From NCBI GenBank assembly GCA_902785275.1, contig CACZYB010000001.1:199884-263883 (forward strand): 64,000 nt of DNA, read 5' to 3'. The position numbers and the translations under genes were made by a program. The notes under the pieces are model-generated. The model saw nothing but the letters and a program-made list of their open reading frames with translations. It had not been told where the DNA came from and ran no database searches. Shown here piece after piece: positions 21,540 through 49,250 of the stretch (position 1 is the first letter of the stretch; the number at the start of each line of letters is the position of its first letter). Origin of the DNA: an uncultured Pseudomonadota bacterium. Its GTDB lineage: Bacteria; Pseudomonadota; Alphaproteobacteria; Rs-D84; CACZYB01.

Positions 21540-21613
21540 GCGGGTGTAGCTCAATGGTAGAGTTCCAGCCTTCCAAGCTGGCCGTGAGGGTTCGATTCCC
21601 TTCACCCGCTCCA
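21540..21613 (+). tRNA. tRNA-Gly(UCC)
   Basis: GCGGGTGTAGCTCAATGGTAGAGTTCCAGCCTTCCAAGCTGGCCGTGAGGGTTCGATTCCCTTCACCCGCTCCA has anticodon loop CTTCCAA and an encoded CCA. Confidence 0.92.
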
Positions 21614-21737: not shown

Positions 21738-23261
21738 ATGTTTGATAAGTGTGATGCAAAGTGTGATGCATTTGGTTTTAGGAATATCCCTCATTTGTGG
21801 TTGAGAAAGAATGTTTTTTATTGTAGAATAGAGTTGCCAAAGAAGGATAGCAAACGAAGATATGGACGTTATTCGTTGCATACAAATAATTATTATGAGG
21901 CTTTAACTAAAATGGATGGTATTAAGCAGTTTAATGTAAAGTTTAATAGATTGTGTGAATTGTATTCTCAAATAAGTGTTATTCGTAGAAATGTTGAGCA
22001 AATTCCAGGTCATGCAATAATGACATTTTATGTTCCGGATGAATTAGTGTTATCTCCAAATAATAAGCCTGAAACATTGATAGAATTTATAGAGTTATTT
22101 GCTGAAATAAAACAGGGTCTTGAAAGATATAATGTTAATAAAGAAGTTGCAAACAATCTTAAAACTATGGAAACTAAACTTAATTTAATTGAAAAAAAGT
22201 TAGGTCCTGAGGCTTTTGCAAAACTTATTCAAACTAATGCTCCACAAGTAAAAGAAACACCTAAACATACATTAAAAGAGATATTGGATATAATGCTTCT
22301 TAGAGCAAATAATAAAGAAGATGAAAAGACAAGAAAAAGGAACTTTTTAAGTAGTGTTTTTGATAGTGTAAATTTGAATTTAGAAAGCGATTATTTGGAT
22401 TTTTATAAGCCTGATATTATTTCTAAGATTTCAGAAAGTATTGTAAATAAGGTAGGTGTAAAGAATGATAATAGACGTCAAAAACTTAGATATATTACGG
22501 AATTTGTAAATTGCGCATGTAATGTAGAGCCTGATTTTTATAAGAATAACCTTATATTAAATTTGCCTAAAATAACAAAAACAAAGAAGAGTGATAGAAA
22601 ACCTCATTTGCCTTATTCTGAGGAACAACTTAAAGAAATATTTGATACAAAGCATAAGTTTTTTGATGAAAACCCGGATGTTTTTTGGATTTGTATGATT
22701 GCTTTGTTTACTGGTGCAAGGTTAAATGCAGCAACAACTTTACAATACGGAGATGTTTTTGAAAAAGATAAGATAAAATGTTTATATTTCCGTTCAAATC
22801 ATACTATAAAGCATTTGAAAAATGATGCAAGTGAAAGAATTGTTCCAATACACAAACAGTTATTAGATTTAGGATTTTGGAATTATGTAGAGCGTAGAAA
22901 AAAGAAATTAAAAGCAAAAGATGAAGATTTTATTTTCCCAAAATGTAAAACAAAAAGTGGTGAATACAATGACAGGTATATGTTAAGAACTTTGTTTGTA
23001 TTTTTGGAAGAACTTGATATTAAAGAAAAAGGTTTGGATTTCCATTCATTCCGTAAAAATGCCAGTCTTGCAATGCAATCTGCTGGTTTAGTTGCAAGTT
23101 GTATCAATAGAATTATTGGTTGGGAAGGAACTGGAACTATGGAGCAATCTTATTCCAATTACACATTACAACAGATAAATACAGAATTAAATAAGTTTAG
23201 TTATGATTACTTACAGACAGAGTTTGATGAGTGGGAAAAAATTATGGAGAAGAAGGATTAG
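21738..23261 (+). CDS. int: Tyrosine recombinase / phage-type integrase
   Basis: 507 aa. The N-terminus LWLRKNVFYCRIELPKKD...SLHTNNYYEA is an integrase arm-binding-type pattern. Catalytic residues: TGARLNAATTL (Arg), HSFRKN (HxxR) and YSNY (Tyr). Confidence 0.9.
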   Translation: MFDKCDAKCDAFGFRNIPHLWLRKNVFYCRIELPKKDSKRRYGRYSLHTNNYYEALTKMDGIKQFNVKFNRLCELYSQISVIRRNVEQIPGHAIMTFYVPDELVLSPNNKPETLIEFIELFAEIKQGLERYNVNKEVANNLKTMETKLNLIEKKLGPEAFAKLIQTNAPQVKETPKHTLKEILDIMLLRANNKEDEKTRKRNFLSSVFDSVNLNLESDYLDFYKPDIISKISESIVNKVGVKNDNRRQKLRYITEFVNCACNVEPDFYKNNLILNLPKITKTKKSDRKPHLPYSEEQLKEIFDTKHKFFDENPDVFWICMIALFTGARLNAATTLQYGDVFEKDKIKCLYFRSNHTIKHLKNDASERIVPIHKQLLDLGFWNYVERRKKKLKAKDEDFIFPKCKTKSGEYNDRYMLRTLFVFLEELDIKEKGLDFHSFRKNASLAMQSAGLVASCINRIIGWEGTGTMEQSYSNYTLQQINTELNKFSYDYLQTEFDEWEKIMEKKD

Positions 23262-27684: not shown

Positions 27685-28728
27685 TTATATATTAACTTCT
27701 TTTACTGGTTCAGTAATGGTAATAACCTTTTTCTTTACAGGAACTTTCTTTACTTCTACATCATGCAAAGCCTTTTCCAAAGCAACCTTTAAAACCGGAG
27801 CAATAACTTCATCTACAGAAAGTTTCACCTTTGCATCATCATACCATTTTTTTGCAAAATTAAAGCCAGCTTCTGAAACATCTTTTAACTTTTCAAATTC
27901 AAAAACTGCCTTTGCCAAATTACCTTCTTTTAAGGCATCCTCAGTCTTTGCAACAATAAAATCCGGAGTTTTTTCTTCATCCAAAGGATTGCTAAAATCA
28001 ATCTTTCTTATTTTCAAAAGACCCTTTACACGGAACAAAAATCTATCTCTCATATTGTCACCTTCACCCTTTGGGTTATTGGAAACAAAAACAACATCTG
28101 TTGCAATTTTATCAAATTCATTTCTTAATTCAGAAACGGTCTTAATTCCATTTTCAGAGTAAGGAGAAAGTACAGTTTCTGCTTCTTGCACAACCTTATC
28201 CTTACCGGCAATTTCCATCAATGTATCAAGCTCTGCTTTGAAACTATCACCTCTATTTATTGCATCACGAAGCAAAGTTGCCGAAGTCAACATCAAAAGG
28301 TTCAAACCTTTATATGTTTTATTATATTCTTCTAAGGAGCTTATTTTTGATTCAAGTTTAGCCAAATCATTCTTATCAAACATAAGTTCACGTACACGTT
28401 GAATATTATCTTTTATATCCAAACCAAATTGTTGAACTTGATCTTTAATATCAACCTTTTGCAAATCACGAATTTTTTCAATATAGGTTTCCAAAAGTTC
28501 AACGCCACCCTTTTCCATATTATCAACTTTGTTTGCTAAAATAAGTACTTGTCTTTTTTGGTTATCAAGCTCTAAGCTTAAAAAACCAATAATCCAAATC
28601 ATAAGAATAAAAAGGAAAGCAAAAATCACCACCTGAAACACAGAAAAAGAAGTTTCCTTTTTTGGTGTTTTTACAATTTCAACAACAGTATCTTCTGTTT
28701 TTTCTAATTTTTTCTTTTTACTAAACAT
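27685..28728 (-). CDS. Mitofilin/Mic60-like (HemX-like) membrane protein
   Basis: N-terminal TM FQVVIFAFLFILMIWIIGFL, long coiled coil, and C-terminal ...ALKEGNLAKAVFEFEKLKDVSEAGFNFAKKWYDDAKVKLSVDE... of the mitofilin-domain type. A hemY_N gene lies downstream. Confidence 0.65.
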   Translation of the reverse strand: MFSKKKKLEKTEDTVVEIVKTPKKETSFSVFQVVIFAFLFILMIWIIGFLSLELDNQKRQVLILANKVDNMEKGGVELLETYIEKIRDLQKVDIKDQVQQFGLDIKDNIQRVRELMFDKNDLAKLESKISSLEEYNKTYKGLNLLMLTSATLLRDAINRGDSFKAELDTLMEIAGKDKVVQEAETVLSPYSENGIKTVSELRNEFDKIATDVVFVSNNPKGEGDNMRDRFLFRVKGLLKIRKIDFSNPLDEEKTPDFIVAKTEDALKEGNLAKAVFEFEKLKDVSEAGFNFAKKWYDDAKVKLSVDEVIAPVLKVALEKALHDVEVKKVPVKKKVITITEPVKEVNI

Positions 28729-28737
28729 AACACTCTC

Positions 28738-29112
28738 CTAAAATTTAAAATCAATAACTGTACTTTGTTTTGGTTTATTGCTTGAAGAAAAAGCCGCAGA
28801 CAAAGTTTTAATTTTTGTTGTAATCTGAGCAAGCACATTTGCCAAAGCATTCTCATCCAATGCTTCTTCTTTCAAAACAGAAACTTGCTTTTCCAAACTT
28901 GCAATTTTTGTTTTTGCCTTTGAAATATCACCAAAGGTAAGAATACAAACCATCAAAAGCAAAGTTTCACTATCAACATCACCAAACATAGATGATAAAC
29001 TTCTTGCTTTATTATCAATTTGCTCAGCAATAGCAAGTATTTGTTCTTCTTGCCCTGCCCCACAATCCACAGAATAATTTTTTGAATTTATTTTAAAATT
29101 AACTGTTGGCAT
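28738..29112 (-). CDS. zapA: Cell division protein ZapA
   Basis: VNFKINSKNYSVDCGAGQEEQILAIAEQIDNKARSL followed by a coiled-coil tail. Confidence 0.8.
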   Translation of the reverse strand: MPTVNFKINSKNYSVDCGAGQEEQILAIAEQIDNKARSLSSMFGDVDSETLLLMVCILTFGDISKAKTKIASLEKQVSVLKEEALDENALANVLAQITTKIKTLSAAFSSSNKPKQSTVIDFKF

Positions 29113-31082: not shown

Positions 31083-32348
31083 ATGAAAAAAACACAAAAT
31101 ATTAAAAAAAAGCTGGGTATTTTGTTTTTCTCAACCTTAATTTTGGGGTGTGAAAACGCACCTCTTCCTTTGCAAGGTGAAAAAGTTTCTATCTTTAACA
31201 AAGAAAAAACACAAAAAACAGAAAATAAAAAAATCATCCTTGAAAAACCATACATAAACAAATTATGGAATTCAAACGGTGGTAACTCTGAAAACAATAT
31301 GGGACATATTGCCGGCCATAAAAAATTCCATAAACTATATTCAAATGATATCGGTTCCGTAAGCTCTAAAAAGCAAATTTTATACACTCCTGTTGCTAAT
31401 GAGAATATGGTATTCACAATATCAGGAAATCTTCGTTTAACTGCAATAAATATAAATACAGGAAAAACGGTTTGGTTCCAAAAATTTTCAAATAATGATT
31501 TAATAAAATTTGGAACACTTGCCTTAAATGGAAATGATTTATACCTTCTAACAAACAATTCACAACTTGTAAAACTTAACGCTAAAACTGGTGAAATAAT
31601 TTACAGTAAATATTTCAATACAAACCTAAAGTCTGGCCTTACAATCTGTGATAACAAACTATTCTTCACAAACGATAATAACGAAACATTTGCAATAAAC
31701 CAAACCACTGGTGAAAAAGAATACATCCACAAAACAATAGAAGAAAGTTCCTCTTTCATTAAAGGTTCAACACCTGCGTGTAAAGACGATAAACTTATAA
31801 CTGCATTCTCAAATGGTGAAGTCCATATGATTATGGCCGAAACATCAACACCAATTTGGCTTGATTCTGTTTATAAAATAAATCCATCAAATATAAACAC
31901 TATATCTGACATCATTGCAAATCCTGCTATAAAAAACAATATCGTCGTTGTAAAAAGCTATAACGATATTACAAAGGCATTTGATATAGATGAAGGAAAA
32001 ACACTTTGGATTACATCAAACGGTGGAAAAACAACTCCTATAATCTCTAATGATACTATGTTTGATATAAACAATAACAAAGTATTATTTGCATCAAACG
32101 TTTCAAATGGAAACAAGATTTGGGAAACAAAGCTTAATATAAAACAAGATGATATATTCTTTGATCCACTTTTGATAAACAATCAAATCATAATCCCTGT
32201 ATCAAACGGAGATATTATAAAGGTAAATCCATACAACGGAAATATCATTGAAACCGAAAGCTTAACATCACAAATTGATGTTTCCCCTATCGTAATAAAT
32301 GATAAATTAATAATTATTTCAAACGGAGATTTAGAAGTTTTCAACTAA
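31083..32348 (+). CDS. bamB: BamB-like PQQ beta-propeller lipoprotein
   Basis: Lipobox LILGC, and repeated Trp/Gly beta-propeller blades (GKTVWFQKF, GEIIYSKYF, GKTLWITSNG, GNKIWETKL). Confidence 0.75.
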   Translation: MKKTQNIKKKLGILFFSTLILGCENAPLPLQGEKVSIFNKEKTQKTENKKIILEKPYINKLWNSNGGNSENNMGHIAGHKKFHKLYSNDIGSVSSKKQILYTPVANENMVFTISGNLRLTAININTGKTVWFQKFSNNDLIKFGTLALNGNDLYLLTNNSQLVKLNAKTGEIIYSKYFNTNLKSGLTICDNKLFFTNDNNETFAINQTTGEKEYIHKTIEESSSFIKGSTPACKDDKLITAFSNGEVHMIMAETSTPIWLDSVYKINPSNINTISDIIANPAIKNNIVVVKSYNDITKAFDIDEGKTLWITSNGGKTTPIISNDTMFDINNNKVLFASNVSNGNKIWETKLNIKQDDIFFDPLLINNQIIIPVSNGDIIKVNPYNGNIIETESLTSQIDVSPIVINDKLIIISNGDLEVFN

Positions 32349-33370
32349 CCTCTTTTGAAAAGCCTTTTATACCATGGTTTCTTCAACTTTAATTGAAGTT
32401 GTCTGAAATAATCTTCGGCAAGTCTTGACCCTTTCATACCATTAATAGTCTTAAGCACTTTCATAAACTCTTCAAAATCCGGATGATTTGGATCCCAACA
32501 GGTATATTTTTCATAATTAGAATTCATTTCTGAATTAGTAGCCCACTTTCTAAATCTTGAAAAATAAGCCTCTGCACCAAATTTATTTGCCATTTTAACA
32601 AATGCAGGCATTTCCCTAAAGTTACCAGAATGAAAAACAAAATTGAAATCTAATTCTTTTAATTCACCCTTCTTTTTTAATTTAGAAATATATTTCAAAT
32701 TCTTTTGAAGTTGTTCCCAATGTCCACCCCTAACTATTCGTTCATAAGTTTCCTTTGTTGCAGCATGAATAGAAAGACATACTTTACAAATCTTACCTTC
32801 TATACCAAAATCTTTTACATGTTTTTCATCAAACAAAAGTCCATTTGATATCAACATAAATTTTATCTTTGGGTACTTTTCTGAAATACGTCTTACCAAA
32901 CACTTCAAATGCTCACTTACAAAAACTTCACCCGAACCATTCAAAAAAACAAATTCTGCATGCTTACAAATTTCAAGAACTTTATCAATAATAGTATTAT
33001 TTTGATTAATATCATCCTTTGATTCTGTAAACCATTCATCACGACAAGTAACACATCTTACATTACATGCCTTAACATAGCTTAAATGAACATATTTTGG
33101 ATAAGGAGGATGATCAATAAAACTTTCTTCAAAATCCTTCATATTCCAATCATTATACTCAAAACAAAACTTTAAATTACAGTGAGTATAAAGGTTGTTA
33201 TAAATATCTCTTCTAAAAGCTTTTGCCCTTTCACCATACCAAATATCCTCAAAAGAATCTTTGTAAATATTTCCAATTACATAATAATCAACAAAAGGAG
33301 CACAACAAAAAAATACTTGCCCATCCCAATCGATATTTATTCGTTCAAAAGGATATTTGCAACATCTCAT
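32345..33370 (-). CDS. Radical SAM protein with N-terminal SPASM/twitch-like Cys motif (paralog 2)
   Basis: CNVRCVTC (CX3CX2C) at about aa 102-109, GSGEVF glycine motif, and N-terminal CKYPFERINIDWDGQVFFC (CX12GX4C). Its ATG overlaps the paralog 1 stop (TAATG). Confidence 0.8.
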   Translation of the reverse strand: MRCCKYPFERINIDWDGQVFFCCAPFVDYYVIGNIYKDSFEDIWYGERAKAFRRDIYNNLYTHCNLKFCFEYNDWNMKDFEESFIDHPPYPKYVHLSYVKACNVRCVTCRDEWFTESKDDINQNNTIIDKVLEICKHAEFVFLNGSGEVFVSEHLKCLVRRISEKYPKIKFMLISNGLLFDEKHVKDFGIEGKICKVCLSIHAATKETYERIVRGGHWEQLQKNLKYISKLKKKGELKELDFNFVFHSGNFREMPAFVKMANKFGAEAYFSRFRKWATNSEMNSNYEKYTCWDPNHPDFEEFMKVLKTINGMKGSRLAEDYFRQLQLKLKKPWYKRLFKRG

Positions 33371-34395
33371 TATTTTTCTCCTAAAATTTTACTTTTCAAT
33401 CTCAACCACCATGTGTCTTTAAGTTTAGATTGAACATATCTAAAGAATTCTTCATCAAATCTATAATTCTTCATTTTCTTAAGCTTTCTAAGTATATTTA
33501 AGAACTTTCTATAATCTTTATGCGCAACCTCCCAACATGCATATTTTTCATAATTTTTGCACATTAACGAAGAATTCCAATTTCTAAACATTGAAAAATG
33601 CACATCAATACCATACTTTTGTGCAATCTCAACAGCTTTAGGCATTTCCTTAAAGTTAAGAGAATGAAAAACGAAACTAAGACTTAGGGATTTAATTTTT
33701 CCTTGAGTTTTTAGTTCGGATAAATATTTCAAATTATTTTGAAGCTTTTTCCAATTTCCACCACGGGTAATTTTTTTATAAGTTCTCTTTGTTCCAGCAT
33801 TAATTGAAACATCAATATACTTTACTTTTATATCCTCACCAAAAAAATCTTTTATATTTTTTTCATCACACAAAAGACCATTTGTCTGAATAAAAAACTC
33901 AATATTTGAGTTAAGTTCAGATATTTTCTTAACAATATTTTTCAAATGGTTACTTACAAAAACTTCACCTGAACCATCTAAATAAATAAATTCAGCCTTT
34001 TTACAAATATCAACAACCTTATCTGTAATCTTATTATAATTTGCTGTATCTTTTTTTGTTTCGATACACAAATCATCACGACAAGTTCTACACCTTAAAT
34101 TACAAGTCTTAACATAACTTAAATTTACAATCTTTGGATACGAAGGATTTTTGATAAATTTTTCATCAAAATCTTTCATATTCCAATCATTATATTCAAA
34201 ACAAAACTTTAAATTACAGTGTTTACAAGAACCCTCAAAAACAGACTTTCTAAATTCAACCGCTTTTTCCCCATACCATAAATCTTCAAAGGAATCATTG
34301 TAAATATTTCCAAGCAAAAAGTTGCTACCACAAAAGGTAACGCTACCGTCCCATTCAATGTTAAGCCTTTCAAATGGAAATTTACAACATCTCAT
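33370..34395 (-). CDS. Radical SAM protein with N-terminal SPASM/twitch-like Cys motif (paralog 1)
   Basis: CNLRCRTC (CX3CX2C), GSGEVF, and N-terminal CKFPFERLNIEWDGSVTFC plus CKHCNLKFC. It lies 13 nt after the mnmG stop. Confidence 0.8.
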   Translation of the reverse strand: MRCCKFPFERLNIEWDGSVTFCGSNFLLGNIYNDSFEDLWYGEKAVEFRKSVFEGSCKHCNLKFCFEYNDWNMKDFDEKFIKNPSYPKIVNLSYVKTCNLRCRTCRDDLCIETKKDTANYNKITDKVVDICKKAEFIYLDGSGEVFVSNHLKNIVKKISELNSNIEFFIQTNGLLCDEKNIKDFFGEDIKVKYIDVSINAGTKRTYKKITRGGNWKKLQNNLKYLSELKTQGKIKSLSLSFVFHSLNFKEMPKAVEIAQKYGIDVHFSMFRNWNSSLMCKNYEKYACWEVAHKDYRKFLNILRKLKKMKNYRFDEEFFRYVQSKLKDTWWLRLKSKILGEK

Positions 34396-34408
34396 ACTAA
34401 CTTCTCCC

Positions 34409-36250
34409 TTAACGTTTTACATACTTAAGTAAAGCAGTCAAGCCCGCAGGTGTCATACCAGGAATTCTTGATGCACTTGCCAAAGTTGTAGGTTTTGCCT
34501 TTTCAAGCTTTGCTCTCAACTCCAAATTAAGACCACCGATTTTACTATAATCTATATTATAAGGAATAGTCAATTCTTGATCTTTTTTATACGAAGCAAT
34601 ATCTTGTTCCTGACGTTTAAGATAACCTTGATACTTTCCCTCAATTTCAACTTGTTTAACAATATTATATGGAAAATCATTTACTTCTGGGAACATAGTT
34701 TTTATTTTATCCATATCTATATCACTATATTTCAATGCTTCATAAGCATTTACCCCAGCGGCACCACAACCTTCACAATCAACAAGTCTAAGCTTTTTAT
34801 TATTAACTTTTTTTGCCTTCAAAAGATTTTTCAAACTTTCAATTTGTTTCATCTTTTCATTGAAAAGTTTTTCTCTCTTTTTTCCAACACAACCAATTTT
34901 CAAACCTATTGGTGTAAGTCTTTGATCGGCATTATCTGCCCTTATACTTAATCTATATTCTGATCTTGCGGTAAACATTCTGTATGGTTCATCAACACCA
35001 AGTGTTGTAATATCATCAACTAAAACACCAATATAAGCCTGACTTCTATCAAGTATAATTTCATCTTCACCCTTTGCAAAAAGCCCTGCATTAAGTCCTG
35101 CTAAAATACCCTGAGATGCAGCTTCTTCATAACCACTTGTTCCATTTATCTGACCTGCAAAATAAAGTCCATTAATACGTTTTGAACCAAGTGTTGGTTT
35201 AAGCTCTCTTGCATCAATCGCATCATATTCAATCGCATAACCATAACGAAGAATTTTAACATTCTCCAATCCCTTTATAGAGTGGATAAAATCTTCTTGC
35301 ACATCCTTTGGTAAAGACGTTGAAATACCATTAGGATAAATCACATCCGAACCATAACCTTCTTGTTCCAAAAATATATGATGACTTGGGTGTGAAGCAA
35401 ATCTAACAACCTTATCTTCAATACTTGGACAATATCTTGGCCCAATAGATTTTATCTGACCATTATAAAGTGGAGTTCTATCCTTATTATCAGTAATAAT
35501 CTTATGTGTTTTTTCATTTGTATAAGTTATATAACAAGGAAGTAACTCTTGTGAAATCTTCTCTGTCATATAAGAAAAAGCTTCCGGAGGATTATCACTT
35601 TCTTGACACTCTAAACCATCATAATTTATAGTAGCCATAGAAAGCCTTGCTGGTGTTCCAGTTTTAAGTCTTAATATTTCAAATCCTGCTTTTTTCAAGG
35701 ATTCTGTAATACCATAACTTGCCTTTTCACCAATTCTTCCACCTTTAGTTTGTTCTTCACCGGTATGCATAACACCGTTTAAGAAAGTACCTGTTGTAAT
35801 GACAACTGATTTACATTTTATTTCTCCGTTATTTTTAAGAACTACCCCTTTAACAGAAGAAAACTTCTCATCAAACAAAATTTCAACAGCTTCATCTTCA
35901 ATAATAGTCAAAGTTTCTTGCTCTGCCAAAATTTCATTCACAGCCTTTTTATACAAAGCTCTATCCGCCTGTGCTCTTGGTCCTTGAACCGCAGCACCCT
36001 TTGATGCATTAAGAACTCTAAATTGTGTACCAGCTTTATCAATAGCCCTTGCCATAACACCATCTAAAGCATCAATTTCACGAACCAAATGCCCCTTTCC
36101 AAGACCACCAATAGAAGGGTTACAAGACATTTCACCAATGTTTGTTTTCATAAAAGTAACAAGTGCTGTTTTAAGACCTAATCTTGCCGATGCAGAACTT
36201 GCTTCTATACCGGCATGACCGCCACCAATAACTACGACATCATAATCCAT
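34409..36250 (-). CDS. mnmG: tRNA uridine 5-carboxymethylaminomethyl modification enzyme MnmG (GidA)
   Basis: The start was moved to the ATG at 36250 (MDYDVVVIGGGHAGIEA). The sequence is conserved GidA throughout. Confidence 0.92.
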   Translation of the reverse strand: MDYDVVVIGGGHAGIEASSASARLGLKTALVTFMKTNIGEMSCNPSIGGLGKGHLVREIDALDGVMARAIDKAGTQFRVLNASKGAAVQGPRAQADRALYKKAVNEILAEQETLTIIEDEAVEILFDEKFSSVKGVVLKNNGEIKCKSVVITTGTFLNGVMHTGEEQTKGGRIGEKASYGITESLKKAGFEILRLKTGTPARLSMATINYDGLECQESDNPPEAFSYMTEKISQELLPCYITYTNEKTHKIITDNKDRTPLYNGQIKSIGPRYCPSIEDKVVRFASHPSHHIFLEQEGYGSDVIYPNGISTSLPKDVQEDFIHSIKGLENVKILRYGYAIEYDAIDARELKPTLGSKRINGLYFAGQINGTSGYEEAASQGILAGLNAGLFAKGEDEIILDRSQAYIGVLVDDITTLGVDEPYRMFTARSEYRLSIRADNADQRLTPIGLKIGCVGKKREKLFNEKMKQIESLKNLLKAKKVNNKKLRLVDCEGCGAAGVNAYEALKYSDIDMDKIKTMFPEVNDFPYNIVKQVEIEGKYQGYLKRQEQDIASYKKDQELTIPYNIDYSKIGGLNLELRAKLEKAKPTTLASASRIPGMTPAGLTALLKYVKR

Positions 36251-36343
36251 TTTTTGCCTCAAATATTCAGATAAAATATAAGCCTTATTATAACAATAAC
36301 AAGGCAAATATCAACTGTTTTTATAAATTAATAATTAAAATTA

Positions 36344-37117
36344 TTATCTATCAAAATCCAATATTTTCTTTATATGATGAATAAAAGAGACTCTATCTGT
36401 AAAAGAAATAAAGTCATCTGGATTTTCGTTATACAACTTTTCCCTATTTGCATATTTACCATATCCAACAGCAATAGTTTTCATACCTGCATTCTTACCC
36501 ATCTTTATATCATTAGGAGAATCCCCAATCATTACAGCTCTTTCAATAGGAATTCCAATTTCCTGTGCAATATAATGAACTATTGCGGGATGTGGTTTAT
36601 CTTTATAATTTCTACCACCTTCTGTTGCTTCTACCATTTCAAAGCAATCACGAACTTCTTCTTTTTGTAAAAACTTAAGTATAGAATGTAAATCACGGGA
36701 AGAAGCAATTGCTAATGCAATATCTGTCTTTGCTAATGATTTAATAACATCCTTCATTTCATCAAAAAACCTCATTTTATTGATAAAATAAGTATCATTC
36801 GAAAGTTTAGTAACCAAAGGAGTAAATTTTGTTCTGTAAATTTCTTTTTGTTCTTCCAAATTTTTACCCCAACCAATATATTCTTTATCCCATTTATCAA
36901 AGATTTTTTCAACAATCTCTTTTGTACAAGGAAGCTCAAGCATTATCATTGCCTTTGCATTTACTTCAAAAAACATATCTTGAGATTGAACCAATGTTTC
37001 ATCAAAATCAAAAACAGCTAATTTTGTTTTTTCAGGTTTATAACCATACATACGAACAGGAACAGCCTTAAATTTATTTACCAATATATTATTTTTTTCT
37101 ATTGAATTCATTTTCAC
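36344..37117 (-). CDS. HAD-superfamily hydrolase (phosphatase-like)
   Basis: LAVFDFDETLV (DxD motif I), IASSR (motif II) and MIGDSPNDIKMG (motif IV). Confidence 0.75.
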   Translation of the reverse strand: MKMNSIEKNNILVNKFKAVPVRMYGYKPEKTKLAVFDFDETLVQSQDMFFEVNAKAMIMLELPCTKEIVEKIFDKWDKEYIGWGKNLEEQKEIYRTKFTPLVTKLSNDTYFINKMRFFDEMKDVIKSLAKTDIALAIASSRDLHSILKFLQKEEVRDCFEMVEATEGGRNYKDKPHPAIVHYIAQEIGIPIERAVMIGDSPNDIKMGKNAGMKTIAVGYGKYANREKLYNENPDDFISFTDRVSFIHHIKKILDFDR

Positions 37118-40748: not shown

Positions 40749-41258
40749 CTACTTTTTAACCTTAATTTTACGATTTTTCTGTTTCGAAGCCAAAGTTTTT
40801 GGTAAATGTATCTTAAGAACACCATTCGAAAAACTTGCTTCTGTATTATCAATATCCACATCAGCTGGCAAAGGAATTGTTCTGCTTACCATACCATAAG
40901 AACGTTCAGAAAAATACCTTCCATTCGATTTATTTTCAACATTACTTCGCTTTTCCCCACGTACAGTCAAATAACCATCCTCTGACACATCTATATCAAT
41001 ATCATCATCGTTCATTCCAGGAAGTTCAACCGATATATTAATATCATTTTCCCCATCAACCATCTCTACTTTAGGTTCAATAAAACTAAAATCACTCAAA
41101 GATGTTAATGGATAATCCAAGATATTAAAGAAATTATCAAAAGCTCTGTTTATATTATGACGAAGTTCGCCAACTTTTTTACTATAATTTTTCTGAGGAA
41201 GATTGTGTTTACCCTCACATTTATTACATACCATAATGCCTCCTTTGTTTTTACACAA
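40749..41258 (-). CDS. Hsp20/alpha-crystallin family small heat-shock protein
   Basis: EPKVEMVDGENDINISVELPGMNDDDIDIDVSEDGYLTVRGEKR...SFSNGVLKIHLPK. The start is uncertain, because the N-terminus has an unusual CNKCEGK stretch. Confidence 0.8.
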   Translation of the reverse strand: MCKNKGGIMVCNKCEGKHNLPQKNYSKKVGELRHNINRAFDNFFNILDYPLTSLSDFSFIEPKVEMVDGENDINISVELPGMNDDDIDIDVSEDGYLTVRGEKRSNVENKSNGRYFSERSYGMVSRTIPLPADVDIDNTEASFSNGVLKIHLPKTLASKQKNRKIKVKK

Positions 41259-41700: not shown

Positions 41701-42402
41701 TTACCAAGCCTTACAAAGATTTTTTACTCTCTGATATTCTTCTTTGCTATCATAGGTATTATTATTTTCAATCAAAGCCTTTTCTAGCTTTGATCTTAAG
41801 ATTTTTATGTTCCTATTTTCGAACACCATTTTTTGAATTTCATTCCCAAGTTTTTTTTCTGAAATCTTTTCATCAAAAAACATCGGACCAACATCACTTG
41901 CAATACGTCTAAGCTCTTTTAAGATTAACGAACCATAATATTTAAGTTCTTTTCTGTAAATAGCAACATGTCCCAATTCATGCTCTTTTATCGCATTATA
42001 TTCACAACTACCCTCTTCATATTTATCATCTATAAGCACATCAATATTCTTGTATCCTATAGTAAAATTAATATTGGAAAGTATCGCACAAATACCATCA
42101 TTTATTTTATATCTTCCAAAACCGAAGTCATATTTAATACCAAAATTCGACTTTGTAAGACCCAAAGTAGCTTTTGGGTTTTTTAAATTTTTTAAATCAG
42201 AAATTTCCTCTCTTGGTACCGATTTAACAACAACATTACCATACTTTATTTGTGTTGTAACATTAGGTTCCTTATAGAAAGTTTCACAAAGTTCATTTGC
42301 ATAAACAGGCAATGAAAAATATAAAAAGCCGGCTATTTTCAAAGTTTTTATGACAAAATTACTTAAAAGAGTCAAGATAAACCTCCACAAATTTATCTCC
42401 AT
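41701..42402 (-). CDS. Secreted HExxH metalloprotease-like protein (DUF922-like)
   Basis: IKEHELGHVAIY contains an HExxH motif. A signal-like segment KIAGFLYFSLPVYA is present. The track start overlaps virB4 by 44 nt, and a TTG at 42342 would remove the overlap. Confidence 0.6.
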   Translation of the reverse strand: MEINLWRFILTLLSNFVIKTLKIAGFLYFSLPVYANELCETFYKEPNVTTQIKYGNVVVKSVPREEISDLKNLKNPKATLGLTKSNFGIKYDFGFGRYKINDGICAILSNINFTIGYKNIDVLIDDKYEEGSCEYNAIKEHELGHVAIYRKELKYYGSLILKELRRIASDVGPMFFDEKISEKKLGNEIQKMVFENRNIKILRSKLEKALIENNNTYDSKEEYQRVKNLCKAW

Positions 42403-44794
42403 GAAGTTTTCTTAATTCTTCAACCAAAAGAACTTGCTTTCTACCACTATTAAATATTTGAAGATATGGACCAAGTCCTGATAAATCAACATTCAAGATA
42501 ACAGATTCATCAATAGAAGGTTTTCTAAACAATATTGCATATTTCAAATCTTTAAATATCTTTCCTTGAATAAATGCCATTTCCTTTGGTGTAAGGTTCC
42601 AACTTTCGTAATCTTCAACCCTTGCTTGAACGTTTCTAAAGAATATTTGTGTCTGGCATTGACCACGAATAACTTCACCAATTCCAAGTTTATCCAAAAC
42701 ATTTGGTTGCTGGAATGCTGCCAAATAAGCTTGTCTTTTCTTTCGACCTTCCTGAAGACCTATCACAAAATTCTTTCTGAATTCTGGATTTTGAAGCATA
42801 GGAGCAGTTTCATCGATTATAATAAGTGATGGATCACCAGTTCTTCCGGTAATATTTTGTATCCTGTTCATAATATAACTAACTACCGCCGGTGCCAAAG
42901 TTCCATCTTCAAAAATATATGTAAAATCAAATGCAGTAAATCTATTTGATAAATCCAAATTATCGCTATCACTATTAAAAAGCTCTCCATATTGGTTATC
43001 ATCAACCCATCTGAATAACTCCCTTCTCATTTTTCCAGCAGGTGAAAAACATGATTTATAAAGGTTTTTAAGAGAACGTTTTTCAGGTTCCAAATAATCA
43101 AATGCAGTTGTCACCGCACGCGCAATTTCATTCTCACTTACCGCATCATTAACCAAAGTTATTTCCTTAAGCCATCTTCTTAAAAAAGCTCTATTTTCAG
43201 GATTATCATCAATTCTAAATGGATTAAGATGAGCAATAGTTCCTGTTTTCTTAATATCCTTATCTTTTGTATCACCATCAAAATTTATGTAAGAACCACC
43301 TATTGCATGGGTAAAAATCTCCGCACCCCTGTATCTATCAAAGAAGAAGCATTTCAAATCTTTAAAACGTAATGATTGCCCAGCCAAGAAAGAATAAAGA
43401 GTTGTTTTACCTTGTCCAGTAGGACCAATCGCAACAGTATGAGCCACCGCAGTAGGTTCCTCAGAAACATGAAATTCGAATTGATAAGCAGTTCCCTGAT
43501 ATGTTGGAAAAATTGCAACCGGTCCCTCACCCCAATCACACTTTGAAAAACCTTCTGGTTGCTTTTCAAAATTAAAACTTGTTGCCACAGCACGTGAAAG
43601 CATTTTATACATTCTTGGGTACTTATCATATGTTGGAAATTGAGAGAACCATGATGCCTGAGCCACCCAACCTTCACGTACAGGTGTAATACCATAAAGA
43701 CGACAAACCTTTTCTATTTCAAATACAACTGCATCAAGTTCTTTTAAGCTATCCGCACTAACAAAAAATGTTTCAGCATAATTTACCAATGTCTGATGAT
43801 CTTCATCACCCTGTTCTATCAAAGCCAAAGCATCATCAAATTGTCTTAAAACATCATATGAAAAAGTTGTTGAACTTGCCATTCTTCGTTGATTAACCAA
43901 AACCATCTGTGCTTTAAGTTTTGATATTGGGAAAAGGTTATGAAGTACAGTAATTTCAAAATTCTTTGATAATATATCGGAAAGCATTTGTTCATCAACA
44001 CTGCTTGCCTGTTGCTTTATTCCAACAACAGCCATATATTTTGTTCTGTTACCAGATGTAAATCTTATATATCCCTTATTACTAAAAAAAATTTCATCTG
44101 ATACCAAAAGTTCAGAAATTCTATCATAAATAATATTTTCAGACTTTGGATTTGGTCTACTTATCGGATTAATAACATGCGCAAAAAATGCAAGAGGACT
44201 TTCTTTTACACCATCTTCTTTTAAAATATCTACACCAAAATTTGAAAGAACCGCCTGCAAAGTAGATGTTGCAGTATCCAAATCTTTCATTGCATCCTTT
44301 CTATCATTAACAGAAAGAACAATATAGTGAGTATTCATAAAAATCTCACTTTGAGCTTCATTCCATTTTTCGCTTATATCTTTCAAAAGTTTATTATAGT
44401 TATTAACGACCTTATCGGAATGAACTTTTTCTCTTATGGTAAAAATACGTGTTTCAACACTTATCTCGGAAAGACTATCAATCCATTTCTTTCTATCTTC
44501 CAAAAACTCCTGAATAACTTCACGCTTTGCAAAGGCAAGAGAAACACCATTAACCTTAAAAACTCTAACTAATGTACCATTCTGACAAAGTATAGTTTTT
44601 TTATCGTTTAAAATTCTTTCAAAAGGAAGATAATTAACAAGTCTTGTATCAAAAGGCTTTGGAAGAAAAATATTTACCTTATCAGACATAAATACAACAA
44701 TAATAACAGCAATCGCTATCAACGAAATAACCAAACCCCAATAATAAGAATTTGATAAACCAGCAACTAAAACATTTTCTAAATTAAAGTTCAT
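42359..44794 (-). CDS. virB4: Type IV secretion ATPase VirB4
   Basis: 811 aa with Walker A GPTGQGKTT and Walker B LIIIDET. Overall length and layout fit VirB4/TrbE, and virB3 lies directly upstream. Confidence 0.85.
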   Translation of the reverse strand: MNFNLENVLVAGLSNSYYWGLVISLIAIAVIIVVFMSDKVNIFLPKPFDTRLVNYLPFERILNDKKTILCQNGTLVRVFKVNGVSLAFAKREVIQEFLEDRKKWIDSLSEISVETRIFTIREKVHSDKVVNNYNKLLKDISEKWNEAQSEIFMNTHYIVLSVNDRKDAMKDLDTATSTLQAVLSNFGVDILKEDGVKESPLAFFAHVINPISRPNPKSENIIYDRISELLVSDEIFFSNKGYIRFTSGNRTKYMAVVGIKQQASSVDEQMLSDILSKNFEITVLHNLFPISKLKAQMVLVNQRRMASSTTFSYDVLRQFDDALALIEQGDEDHQTLVNYAETFFVSADSLKELDAVVFEIEKVCRLYGITPVREGWVAQASWFSQFPTYDKYPRMYKMLSRAVATSFNFEKQPEGFSKCDWGEGPVAIFPTYQGTAYQFEFHVSEEPTAVAHTVAIGPTGQGKTTLYSFLAGQSLRFKDLKCFFFDRYRGAEIFTHAIGGSYINFDGDTKDKDIKKTGTIAHLNPFRIDDNPENRAFLRRWLKEITLVNDAVSENEIARAVTTAFDYLEPEKRSLKNLYKSCFSPAGKMRRELFRWVDDNQYGELFNSDSDNLDLSNRFTAFDFTYIFEDGTLAPAVVSYIMNRIQNITGRTGDPSLIIIDETAPMLQNPEFRKNFVIGLQEGRKKRQAYLAAFQQPNVLDKLGIGEVIRGQCQTQIFFRNVQARVEDYESWNLTPKEMAFIQGKIFKDLKYAILFRKPSIDESVILNVDLSGLGPYLQIFNSGRKQVLLVEELRKLHGDKFVEVYLDSFK

Positions 44795-46766: not shown

Positions 46767-47651
46767 TTATATATTATTTAGTTTTGTGGTTATGTTGTTA
46801 AGTTCAGACAAATCATTAAACTTAATAACAATTTCACCTTTCTTACCTTTAAGTTTAATATCTACTTTTGCATTCAAGGTATCAGAAAGATTTTCACGTA
46901 AAGAGATTAACTCACTTGTAAGTTCATTTGACTCTTCAGAAGAAGTTTCATTTTTCTTTACAGGTTTTACTATATCCTCTGCTTCCTTAACTGTCATATC
47001 ACCTTTCAATATTGATTTTGCCATCTTTATTGGATTTTCTTTTCCAACTAAAGTTCTTGCAATACTGTATGAAAGATCTCCATTATTAACCATATCTTGA
47101 ACTTCCTGAGGAAGATAAAGAAGTCTTAAAACATTTGCAATGTATGAACGGCTTTTATTAACTATCTTTGCAATATCTTCCTGAGTGTAATCAAAAGAGT
47201 TCATAAGTTTCTTGTAACCATTAGCTTCTTCGATAGGTGAAAGATTTTCTCTTTGTAAATTTTCAATCAAACCTATCTCAAAAGTTTCTTTATCTGATAA
47301 TTCTTTGATTATAGCTGGAATTTCAGTTATTCCAGCAAAAGTACTAGCTCTCCATCTTCTTTCACCAGCAATAATTTCATACATATTTGGCTGGGTTTTT
47401 AGTTCTCTAACTAAAATTGGTTGTAAAACACCATTTTTTTCAATAGATGAAGCTAATTCTTTTAATTGATCTTCCTTAAAATTTTTTCTTGGCTGATCTT
47501 TATTTGGAACTATATTACCAACAGGAATATATTTTATATCACCCTGCTCTACTTCTGTCTCTGAATTTGGATTTTTAAAAACAGGAACTTCTTTTTGCTT
47601 ATTTTCAAAAAAAGTTGATAAACCTTTTCCTAATCTTGACTCTACTTTCAT
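46767..47651 (-). CDS. parB: Chromosome partitioning protein ParB/Spo0J
   Basis: NKDQPRKNF...GVLQPILVR...IIAGERRWRAS and an HTH region (DIAKIVNKSRSYIANVLRLL). Confidence 0.92.
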   Translation of the reverse strand: MKVESRLGKGLSTFFENKQKEVPVFKNPNSETEVEQGDIKYIPVGNIVPNKDQPRKNFKEDQLKELASSIEKNGVLQPILVRELKTQPNMYEIIAGERRWRASTFAGITEIPAIIKELSDKETFEIGLIENLQRENLSPIEEANGYKKLMNSFDYTQEDIAKIVNKSRSYIANVLRLLYLPQEVQDMVNNGDLSYSIARTLVGKENPIKMAKSILKGDMTVKEAEDIVKPVKKNETSSEESNELTSELISLRENLSDTLNAKVDIKLKGKKGEIVIKFNDLSELNNITTKLNNI

Positions 47652-47661
47652 ATTTCCCTCC

Positions 47662-48471
47662 TTAAGCTACTTTTTTAAGATTTTTATTTTCATTTCTTGT
47701 TATGAATTCAGCAGCTAAATTTATATAAGCTTGACTTCCCATACAATCTAAATCATATAAAATAACAGGTTTTCCATGTGAAGGAGCCTCTGAAATTCTT
47801 ACATTTCTTGGTATTAATGTATTAAAAACAAGTTCTCCAAAACAATTTCTTACATCTTTTTCAACAAGCTCAGAAAGTTTATTTCTTCTATCATACATAG
47901 TAAGTAAAACACCTTCAATTTCCAGTTCGTTATTAATATTTTGTTGAACAAGTTGTATTGTATTCATAAGATGACTTACACCTTCTAATGCAAAAAATTC
48001 ACATTGTAATGGTATCATAACAGAGTCAGATGCACCTAAAGCATTAAGTGTTAAAAAGCCAAGTGCTGGTGGACAATCTATTAAAATATAGTCATATTCT
48101 GATAAAAATTGATTTTTTTGAAAAAGATAACGTAATTTTAAAGTTTTTTCTTCCATATTTGCAAGATCAATTTCAGCAGCAGAAAGATCAATAGAAGCCG
48201 GAATTACATCTAAATTTTTTATTTTTGTTTGTTTTATTACTTCTTTAAAAGTATTTTTTTCAAAAAGTAAAGAATAAATATCTTCATTTCTTTCATTTTG
48301 TTCAATTCCAAGACCTGTACTTGCATTTCCTTGAGGATCAAAATCTATTACTAAAACTTTTTTATCTATTGTCGCAAGTGCAGTTGCTAAATTTATAGCT
48401 GTTGTTGTTTTACCAACCCCGCCTTTTTGGTTTGTTATTGATATTATTTTTGTATTTTGAAATATTGTCAT
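47662..48471 (-). CDS. parA: Chromosome partitioning ATPase ParA/Soj
   Basis: ISITNQKGGVGKTTTAINLA (deviant Walker A), DFDPQGNAS and ILIDCPP. Confidence 0.92.
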   Translation of the reverse strand: MTIFQNTKIISITNQKGGVGKTTTAINLATALATIDKKVLVIDFDPQGNASTGLGIEQNERNEDIYSLLFEKNTFKEVIKQTKIKNLDVIPASIDLSAAEIDLANMEEKTLKLRYLFQKNQFLSEYDYILIDCPPALGFLTLNALGASDSVMIPLQCEFFALEGVSHLMNTIQLVQQNINNELEIEGVLLTMYDRRNKLSELVEKDVRNCFGELVFNTLIPRNVRISEAPSHGKPVILYDLDCMGSQAYINLAAEFITRNENKNLKKVA

Positions 48472-48641
48472 ATTTCCTCCTGATTTGTTTTTATATATTA
48501 AAAATATAAGATTTTTTTAGAATCTTTGCAAGAAATTTTTAATTATTACCGGTATTTTTTTTATTTATATCGAATTTATTATTAAAAATTATAAAATTTT
48601 TAAAAGTTAATATATTGTTTTTACAGAGAAATAGTTGAAAT

Positions 48642-48657
48642 TGTTTCACGTGAAACA
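48642..48657. promoter_or_regulatory. parS centromere site (perfect consensus palindrome)
   Basis: TGTTTCACGTGAAACA lies between rsmG and parA. Confidence 0.85.
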
Positions 48658-48692
48658 ATTTTATTGAAAATTAAAATTTTTGTATAAAATAA

Positions 48693-49250
48693 TTATTTTT
48701 TAGAAATATTTGTTATTTTTATAATAAAACCATCTTGTTTTTTATTTAAAACAAAATTAAAATTCCAATTAATTTTTGCTTTATTTATTTCTTCATTTAT
48801 GTTTTCACCTTTAAGTAAATACATTTCAGTTTTATCATAAATAATATTTTCACATAGATCTAAAAATTTATCTAATGGTGCAAAAGCACGTCCAATTATT
48901 GTATTAGCTTTTGATTTAATTTTTTCCACACGATCGTTTATAATATTGCAATCAATATTATATTCTTTTTTTATTTCTTTAAGAAAAAAGCATTTTCTTT
49001 CATCTGCTTCAATAAAATTTATTCCTTTTATACCGGCAACGCTTAAAACCATACCTGGAAAACCACCACCACTACCTATATCATAGATATTTTCTTTATC
49101 TTTTAAATAATCATAAAGATATAAACTGTCTTTAAAATGTCTTTCCCAAATAGAAGGTATTGTTTTTGGGCTGATAAGGTTTATCGCCTTTTGCCATTTT
49201 AAAAGAATTTTTATATAATTTTCAAATTTTTCTTTTTTTATTTCAGTCAT
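48693..49250 (-). CDS. rsmG: 16S rRNA m7G527 methyltransferase RsmG (GidB)
   Basis: LLKWQKAINLIS...DIGSGGGFPGMVLSV, located upstream of parAB. Confidence 0.85.
   Translation of the reverse strand: MTEIKKEKFENYIKILLKWQKAINLISPKTIPSIWERHFKDSLYLYDYLKDKENIYDIGSGGGFPGMVLSVAGIKGINFIEADERKCFFLKEIKKEYNIDCNIINDRVEKIKSKANTIIGRAFAPLDKFLDLCENIIYDKTEMYLLKGENINEEINKAKINWNFNFVLNKKQDGFIIKITNISKK

Follow-up and report, generated by a model that had tools for sequence, protein, structure and literature searches.

Reviews of radical S-adenosylmethionine (SAM) enzymes define both SPASM and twitch domains as C-terminal: twitch domains possess three to four cysteines and hold one [4Fe-4S] cluster, while SPASM domains possess seven or eight cysteines and hold two. 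Two tandem genes identified in a 64,000 nt stretch of DNA from an uncultured gut alphaproteobacterium (contig CACZYB010000001.1, positions 199,884 to 263,883; referred to here as the window) encode 341-aa radical SAM enzymes in which a putative twitch domain is predicted to lie at the N-terminus, ahead of the radical SAM core. As judged from sequence, this domain order is the reverse of that of every characterised or solved SPASM/twitch enzyme. The two proteins belong to a large family, for which the tailoring of sugars or glycans is tentatively proposed.

The tandem radical SAM genes

The ORFs (open reading frames) of paralog 1 (33370-34395; identified with Pfam and an AlphaFold2 (AF2) model) and paralog 2 (32345-33370; identified with Pfam and BLASTP) are both located on the minus strand. 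Their products begin with MRCCKFPFERLNIEWDGSVTFC and MRCCKYPFERINIDWDGQVFFC, respectively, giving the pattern C4-x12-G17-x4-C22. A second cysteine stretch reads C57-K-H-C60-NLKF-C65 in paralog 1 and Y-T-H-C-NLKF-C in paralog 2. The radical SAM motif is C98-N-L-R-C102-R-T-C105 in paralog 1 (34081-34104, minus strand), 99% conserved over 139 family members, and C102-N-V-R-C106-V-T-C109 in paralog 2 (33044-33067, minus strand). The two 341-aa ORFs, the N-terminal cysteine pattern and the positions of CNLRCRTC and CNVRCVTC are all as given in an earlier, sequence-only reading of this stretch, whose sequence-level statements held throughout. Its estimate of end-to-end paralogy, with about half of the positions identical, was borne out by BLASTP (55% identity over 338 aa, E = 5e-134). 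Both proteins possess a GSGE SAM-binding motif and all seven cysteines conserved in the family.

The stop codon of paralog 1 overlaps with the start codon of paralog 2 in the sequence TAATG (33368-33372, minus strand), with one base common to both. Translational coupling had been claimed for the pair: the TAATG at 33372-33368 was confirmed, while coupling itself is only consistent with this overlap. A one-base overlap would favour equimolar expression, which would be consistent with a heteromer or with consecutive steps; the existence of single-copy genomes implies that a partner paralog is not obligatory.

Nucleotide identity between the paralogs peaks over aa 57-76 of paralog 1 (HCNLKFCFEYNDWNMKDF; 34168-34227 and 33131-33190), where it reaches 92%, and 85% at third positions, compared with 68% and 58% for the pair overall. 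This peak could be a short gene-conversion tract or a sign of strong local constraint.

The N-terminal domain and its cysteine site

Pfam analysis showed that both proteins match PF13186 (SPASM; gathering threshold 21.5 bits), at aa 4-61 of paralog 1 (E = 1.8e-11, 44.6 bits) and aa 4-65 of paralog 2 (E = 5e-14, 52.8 bits), and that the whole 67-position model (positions 1-67) is covered. PF04055 (Radical_SAM; threshold 29.5 bits) was matched at approximately aa 95-256 (E = 3.8e-10 and 1.4e-9; 40.6 and 38.8 bits). These domain matches are not due to chance, as all four scores exceed the gathering scores. The signature CX9-15GX4C of the SPASM/twitch subgroup (PF13186; SFLD subgroup 17) is present as C4-x12-G17-x4-C22. 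The C-terminal placement that also belongs to the definition of this subgroup is absent, as the auxiliary domain (aa 4-65) precedes the core (approximately aa 95-256). The permuted architecture suspected by the sequence-only reading, an auxiliary-cluster domain ahead of the CX3CX2C core, was thus upheld by the order of Pfam domains, the check that it had suggested. The same check included TIGR04085, the model of SPASM proper (cutoff 27 bits), and this was not matched above its cutoff: paralog 2 scored 19.1 bits, paralog 1 gave no match, and only four to five conserved cysteines are available. The two-cluster motif CX2CX5CX3C is not present in the window proteins.

Alignment of 24 close relatives identified seven invariant cysteines (C4, C22, C60, C65, C98, C102 and C105, paralog 1 numbering). 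Among 139 members from several phyla, the N-terminal cysteines are conserved at 96% (C4), 97% (C22), 99% (C60) and 98% (C65), and the core cysteines C98, C102 and C105 at 99% each; only truncated ORF calls, and one copy at locus L033 with Leu at the C65 position, depart from this. The free-living branch of the family, 25-30% identical, retains the arrangement C-x12-G-x4-C(C) ... C-x4-C. C23 is present in 91% of the 139 members and is replaced by Gly in paralog 1. C57, a Tyr-to-Cys change that creates the CKHC noted in the earlier reading, is private to paralog 1 (1/139 members). C57 was also considered as compensating for the missing C23; this gained no support, as other sequences without C23 are also without C57.

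Because four cysteines are conserved and TIGR04085 scores below its cutoff, the N-terminal domain fits a putative one-cluster twitch domain, not a two-cluster SPASM domain or half of one. The cysteine pattern earlier described as the first half of the SPASM signature is there, but the domain carrying it is better read as a one-cluster twitch. It is assigned to aa 1-66 of paralog 1 (34198-34395, minus strand; Pfam, alignment and domain-only model), with C4, C22, C60 and C65 as candidate ligands, and to aa 1-70 of paralog 2 (33161-33370, minus strand; Pfam and alignment), with C4, C22, C23, C64 and C69 in the latter. The only protein of the PDB matched by sequence was BtrN, weakly (phmmer E = 0.02) and in swapped order: aa 24-61 of the query align with BtrN 193-236, and aa 95-208 with BtrN 13-126.

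Predicted structure and the radical SAM core

The AF2 model of full-length paralog 1 has a predicted local distance difference test score (pLDDT) of 89.9 and a predicted template modelling score (pTM) of 0.85, with N-terminal blocks at pLDDT 83-96. The N-terminal topology is a hairpin (strands 10-13 and 18-20) followed by helices (36-41 and 43-53). The predicted layout consists of this beta-hairpin and helix cysteine domain, a linker of approximately 25 residues, a partial-TIM-barrel core and a helical C-terminal extension of approximately 70 residues. In the close clade the C-terminal tail is basic and rich in Trp (Trp/Lys-rich); the idea that it forms a membrane-binding amphipathic helix was not supported, its hydrophobic moment being unexceptional. 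Modelled alone, the N-terminal 88 residues gave a pLDDT of 83.6. The best match of this domain-only model among 350,000 chains was BtrN (4m7s; query TM-score (TMq) 0.54, root-mean-square deviation 2.8 Å, 68 columns, 31% identity), and the second best was anSME.

A Foldseek search of the PDB with the full-length model returned viperin, DesII, NifB and TYW1 (E = 1e-8 to 1e-6, TMq 0.45-0.49); the matches were confined to the generic core, and no solved structure with the whole layout was found. With viperin as the top full-length fold match, these proteins might be viperin-like makers of modified nucleotides, diversified by an arms race as conflict or defence enzymes. Weak pVip matches (37-48 bits) and the hypervariable, multi-copy nature of the cassette (see below) would agree with such a role. 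So would one distant homolog (P0029, 26% identical) on a phage-like contig (ERZ1426815) that also carries a dCMP deaminase, a NUMOD3 endonuclease, a ferritin and DUF6321. The pVip matches, however, span the generic core only (for paralog 2, 37 bits over model positions 6-159 of 257), and paralog 1 is without any PADLOC match. Furthermore, viperins are without an auxiliary cluster, and the neighbours are housekeeping genes, not defence islands. The window proteins score 30-40 bits against the prokaryotic viperin model NF038283 (cutoff 180 bits). A role in defence is judged highly improbable. PADLOC and PHROGs gave only weak generic radical SAM matches, and the defence and phage readings were both set aside.

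The best profile matches of the core raise a different possibility, namely a protein or peptide maturase. Each paralog would alter a residue in a target protein, or in a precursor of a peptide that is ribosomally synthesised and then modified post-translationally (RiPP), encoded elsewhere, like anSME or the predicted tungsten/metalloenzyme maturases. The structural neighbours of the N-terminal domain include anSME, and multiple paralogs could serve multiple targets. The models concerned are TIGR04317, for a tungsten cofactor oxidoreductase maturase (69-76 bits), and TIGR04311, for a putative metalloenzyme maturase (66-83 bits). These scores are nevertheless far under the cutoffs of 380-400 bits, and the Pfam and NCBIfam profiles of the window proteins include no RRE/PqqD-like domain. 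There is no precursor ORF at the window locus, nor space for one, and no conserved partner protein or recurrent small neighbour was found across 84 loci. Peptide maturases, moreover, usually carry a two-cluster SPASM domain, whereas a one-cluster domain is predicted here. Maturation of a protein or peptide is thus considered unlikely.

Family size and database status

The NCBIfam model NF033640 (N_Twi_rSAM) aligns collinearly with the window proteins (aa 3-311 to model positions 4-347 of 398), and these score 58.5 and 64.3 bits against a cutoff of 170. Seven relatives, five of them from cultured bacteria, score 51-90 bits, all below this cutoff. Because the alignment is collinear yet below cutoff, the window proteins are placed, by profile comparison, in a sister family to NF033640 with the same architecture and without a curated model of its own. 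The permuted layout is accordingly not as new as it had first appeared, since NF033640 already models such an order and approximately 1,700 clusters have the same layout. A known family with an N-terminal cysteine domain, which had been named as an outcome that would overturn the earlier claim, does exist in NF033640, but that family is itself uncharacterised.

A profile search of 1.84 billion representatives identified 1,708 clusters (50% identity) matching end-to-end at E <= 1e-30. Their source names are generic only ("radical SAM/SPASM domain-containing protein" and "SPASM domain-containing protein"). A search of a literature library gave no description of the family, of an N-terminal SPASM/twitch layout or of NF033640, and none linking the family to work on Gastranaerophilales, O-antigen or polysaccharide. 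Among species-representative genomes, a single-sequence scan found no relatives and a profile scan found 200. Cultured carriers include Roseospirillum parvum, Tropicimonas, Ruegeria, Methylosinus, Rubrivivax and Chryseosolibacter. Members from free-living Proteobacteria (P0076, P0082, P0128 and P0143) are 410-520 aa in length, with an extra N-terminal region of approximately 130-170 aa without a Pfam match; here the twitch domain lies inside the chain, still ahead of the core.

The probable mnmG operon and turnover of its tail

The pair follows mnmG (34409-36307, minus strand), the product of which matches TIGR00136 with 817 bits, aligned from aa 22; its true start is probably an ATG approximately 19 codons inside the ORF, giving the 613 aa called on an identical contig. 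A HAD-family phosphatase gene (36344-37117, minus strand), syntenic throughout the clade, is the first gene of this co-directional block. The spacer between mnmG and paralog 1 is 13 nt in length (GGGAGAAGTTAGT; 34396-34408, minus strand), as had been noted from the sequence: paralog 1 begins at 34395, the mnmG ORF having ended at 34409. It contains a Shine-Dalgarno-like GGGAG and has no room for a terminator; no terminator-like site was found in it, and promoter and terminator scans gave nothing above shuffled controls. A HAD-mnmG-rSAM-rSAM operon, with the two radical SAM (rSAM) genes at its tail, is probable.

On the other side the slot is bounded by the convergent bamB (31083-32348, plus strand), encoding a PQQ_2-type beta-propeller (TIGR03300, 134 bits; cutoff 285). 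Paralog 2 ends in TAG (minus strand) and bamB in TAA (plus strand); the two stop codons overlap at 32345-32348, leaving no intergenic space. Tight convergent overlaps of 4-18 nt also occur at loci L003, L007, L010 and L011, despite rSAM conservation of approximately 50%. With mnmG abutting on one side and the bamB stop overlap on the other, there is no space for a precursor-peptide ORF, in line with the earlier observation that none was evident. Likewise, rsmG (48693-49250), parA (47662-48471) and parB (46767-47651) were located as a group (46767-49250) approximately 12.4 kb from mnmG, where 12 kb had been stated. The GC content of the two genes bears no mark of recent acquisition.

The closest relatives of the window proteins are 43-59% identical, and all are from uncultured gut Alphaproteobacteria. 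In eight species-level genomes of this clade the gene order is ileS, HAD-mnmG-rSAM(xN), then a convergent bamB or PBP1, with a gap of 8-29 nt between mnmG and the first rSAM gene. The slot contains one copy in L007, L008, L010 and L012, two in the window and L011, four in L003 and at least five in GCA_016648615.1, where the contig ends. The closest genome is L007, a metagenome-assembled genome from water-deer rectum: compared with the window, its IleRS is 90% identical, MnmG 92%, BamB 83%, ZapA 82% and Mic60 82%, whereas the rSAM protein in the same slot is only 49-50% identical. Given this difference (49-50% against 82-92%), the slot is therefore described as a fast-turnover cassette, diverging much faster than the genes that flank it.

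The largest arrays, of approximately 14 radical SAM genes in approximately 15 kb (L033:5593-20881) and approximately 10 (L030:7741-19688), were identified in gut Melainabacteria (Gastranaerophilales). In both, genes of the window's family stand together with those of a sister family, rSAM-B (approximately 330 aa; e.g. L041:5284-6288), which possesses C6, C23/24 and C74-x2-C77 ahead of CX3CX2C in an N-terminal domain unrecognised by Pfam. The two families are distant sisters (hhalign probability 98.4%, E = 6e-15). In a rough neighbour-joining tree, copies from the gut alphaproteobacterial clade group with melainabacterial copies and not with those of free-living Alphaproteobacteria, and the tandem copies of one genome usually cluster together. 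These groupings suggest that the genes were exchanged between gut lineages and repeatedly duplicated in place.

The position next to mnmG had been read as a coupling of the pair to this gene, implying a tRNA- or RNA-modification enzyme working with MnmG. The operon-type adjacency stands, and it occurs in 8/8 genomes of the gut alphaproteobacterial clade. Other tRNA-modification genes also recur. At four melainabacterial-type loci a "GidA-like" neighbour proved to be TrmFO (631 bits, convergent): family genes at L016:9196-12316, and at the equivalent positions in L017, L025 and L040, lie between a divergent YhhQ/Vut_1 transporter gene and a convergent trmFO. In L004, TsaB/TsaE are encoded two genes away. 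Linkage to mnmG is, however, kept only in this one clade and is not present in most lineages: elsewhere the family genes are found after skp (L005, L006), near comM and tsaB/tsaE/bamA (L004), near nusA/rimP or in other places. As the adjacency is clade-restricted and other lineages have other neighbours, it makes poor evidence of a functional link. A copy number of 1 to at least 5 per slot, with arrays of approximately 14 genes, fits poorly with a conserved tRNA substrate, and rSAM identity of approximately 50% between genomes approximately 90% identical elsewhere fits poorly with a conserved tRNA. No RNA-binding domain was identified by Pfam, trmFO is convergent and not co-transcribed, and the neighbour pattern was noticed post hoc. 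Its recurrence may be coincidence, and a tRNA-modifying role is regarded as quite improbable.

Three unrelated lineages have HAD hydrolase genes just ahead of the family gene, or of mnmG with the family gene: these are the gut alphaproteobacterial clade (36344-37117), Roseospirillum (L089:2878-8004) and Methylosinus (L090:6457-7365). This recurrence could hint at a phosphorylated sugar intermediate, or could be chance.

A proposed role in glycan tailoring

The characterised twitch enzymes (BtrN, MoaA, AprD4 and NeoN) act on small molecules, several of which are carbohydrates. For the present family, tailoring of a sugar or glycan by a twitch-first radical SAM enzyme is the best hypothesis; it is unproven, and a probability of roughly 0.45 is given to it.

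Domain fusions point in this direction. Twenty long family representatives were examined for extra domains, and ten of these are fused to domains of glycan-type tailoring or transfer. The partners identified were class-I methyltransferases (5), an FkbM methyltransferase (1), a polysaccharide pyruvyl transferase (1), glycosyltransferases (GT) of families GT1/GT4 (1) and GT2+GT4 (1), a sulfotransferase+GT2+GT4+B12-rSAM protein (1) and a TPR protein (1); nine of the twenty have no identifiable partner. Some gene neighbourhoods agree. The gene of Roseospirillum parvum is co-directional among two HAD-like genes, two epimerase/dehydratases, a GHMP kinase, a nucleotidyltransferase, two GT2s, a sulfotransferase and another epimerase, and that of Tropicimonas lies before GtrA and GT2. 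In L034 and L041 a GT9 heptosyltransferase is encoded immediately upstream of the arrays. The context in Methylosinus is uninformative.

Several observations weigh against a glycan substrate. Glycan-type genes occur within 6 kb at only 8/84 loci (4 of 8 supplied seeds in a BLAST-seed test), and a general "glycan neighbourhood" rule proved weak on this count. In the window itself the neighbours of the pair are HAD, mnmG, bamB, a TPR_21 protein and rph, with no glycan gene adjoining, and tRNA-modification genes (MnmG, TrmFO, YhhQ, TsaB/E) recur as neighbours elsewhere. The fusion proteins are unverified metagenomic gene calls from distant relatives, function may differ across so diverse a family, and fusions to class-I methyltransferases are not specific to glycans. 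The domain-only Foldseek matches are weak (E = 0.58 and above), as is expected for so small a domain.

The substrate could also be another small molecule or a lipid, that is, a cofactor, a membrane lipid, a lipid A acyl chain or a secondary metabolite. The action of twitch enzymes on small molecules is in keeping with this, as are the envelope-biogenesis neighbours bamB, skp and bamA in three lineages, the basic, Trp-rich C-terminal tail of the close clade and an ApbA-type reductase inside the L030 and L033 arrays. The hydrophobic moment of that tail is, however, unexceptional, and no lipid-biosynthesis genes recur across the loci. Moreover, the fusion partners that are pathway-specific are carbohydrate-active (GTs, pyruvyl transferase and sulfotransferase), the methyltransferases not being diagnostic. 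Such a substrate is rated unlikely, and sugar or glycan tailoring is preferred.

For BtrN and anSME, the auxiliary cluster has been proposed to take or relay an electron from the substrate radical. A mechanism for glycan tailoring may be outlined along the same lines. The cluster of the CX3CX2C motif would cleave SAM, and the resulting 5'-deoxyadenosyl radical would strip the substrate of a hydrogen atom. The N-terminal domain would hold one fully Cys-ligated auxiliary [4Fe-4S] cluster, which would accept or relay the electron of the substrate radical as in BtrN and anSME, and the net chemistry would be a dehydrogenation, an epimerisation or similar redox tailoring. The identity of the substrate is the least certain step: it might be a sugar, nucleotide- or lipid-linked, or one already placed in a cell-envelope glycan. 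Paralogs would differ in specificity, and changes of copy number together with paralog turnover would diversify the surface polysaccharide of gut-dwelling bacteria.

A fast-turnover cassette with housekeeping genes on its flanks, common to two gut-restricted phyla, suggests a role at the phage or host interface. A bolder version, which is held to be doubtful, is that the variable arrays form an unrecognised diversification system. Its genes would have been swapped between the two phyla, and paralog turnover would rewrite a surface glycan or other phage- or host-exposed molecule by radical chemistry that does not depend on oxygen and has no parallel among characterised enzymes.

If the cluster is correctly assigned, these proteins represent a large untouched branch of the radical SAM enzymes (approximately 1,700 clusters) with no characterised member and no solved structure. 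A twitch domain at the other end of the chain would be a natural experiment on the position of the auxiliary cluster relative to the active site, and the family would be a likely source of new anaerobic tailoring chemistry. Taken alone the finding is modest, an uncharacterised radical SAM subfamily with a layout already noticed by NCBI curators; added here are the size of the family, its repeated expansion in tandem, the hypervariable slot and a lead towards glycan tailoring for which cultured carriers exist.

Other features of the window

A tRNA gene (21540-21610) is located directly before a gene for a phage-type integrase (21738-23261). Beyond the integrase, to approximately 27000, the ORFs are without a Pfam match and GC content is 24% at approximately 26-27 kb; the region from 21540 to approximately 27000 resembles an integrated mobile element. 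A VirB4/CagE-type type IV secretion ATPase (42359-44794; 385 bits, below the subfamily cutoff) is adjoined by ORFs to which no function was assigned (41701-42402), with an Hsp20 gene nearby (40749-41258). Genes for a Mic60/Mitofilin-domain protein (27685-28728) and zapA (28738-29112) adjoin one another, and the alphaproteobacterial origin of the window is supported by the synteny of this pair across the gut alphaproteobacterial clade.

Comparison with known systems

NF033640 shares its domain order with the window proteins, including the N-terminal cysteine domain, and aligns with them collinearly, as it does with relatives from cultured bacteria. It differs in that the window proteins and their relatives reach only 51-90 bits of the 170 required, and the model is itself functionally uncharacterised.

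The SPASM maturases (anSME, TIGR04317, TIGR04311, PqqE and MftC) resemble the window proteins as the best core profile matches and through PF13186, which is matched over the whole model. Unlike them, the window proteins are without the seven/eight-Cys two-cluster motif, an RRE domain (RiPP recognition element) or a peptide partner; the domain order is reversed, and scores are far below the cutoffs. Among solved folds, viperin and DesII, radical SAM enzymes of nucleotides or nucleotide sugars, come closest to the full-length model (E = 1e-8 to 1e-7, TMq 0.45-0.49). Their likeness is confined to the shared barrel, viperin possesses no auxiliary cluster, and profile scores are again far below the cutoffs.

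TYW1 and LipA are among the full-length fold matches of the window protein. In TYW1, LipA and MiaB/RimO an auxiliary [4Fe-4S] site lies upstream of CX3CX2C, so N-terminal placement as such has precedent; their N-terminal cluster sites, however, are not SPASM/twitch folds and have no sequence relationship to the domain of the window proteins.

BtrN, a 2-deoxy-scyllo-inosamine dehydrogenase and the archetype of twitch radical SAM enzymes (PDB accession no. 4m7s and 4m7t), differs in that its twitch domain is C-terminal (residues approximately 170-235) while that of the window proteins is N-terminal, and in that its last ligand pair is C-x2-C where the window proteins have C-x4-C. The window proteins also carry an extra helical C-terminal extension of approximately 70 aa. 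It is nonetheless both the best sequence match in the PDB and the best fold match of the N-terminal domain, though statistically both are weak (phmmer E = 0.02, Foldseek E = 0.58). In common with the putative twitch domain of the window proteins, BtrN has four cysteines for one auxiliary cluster, and its substrate is of carbohydrate type.

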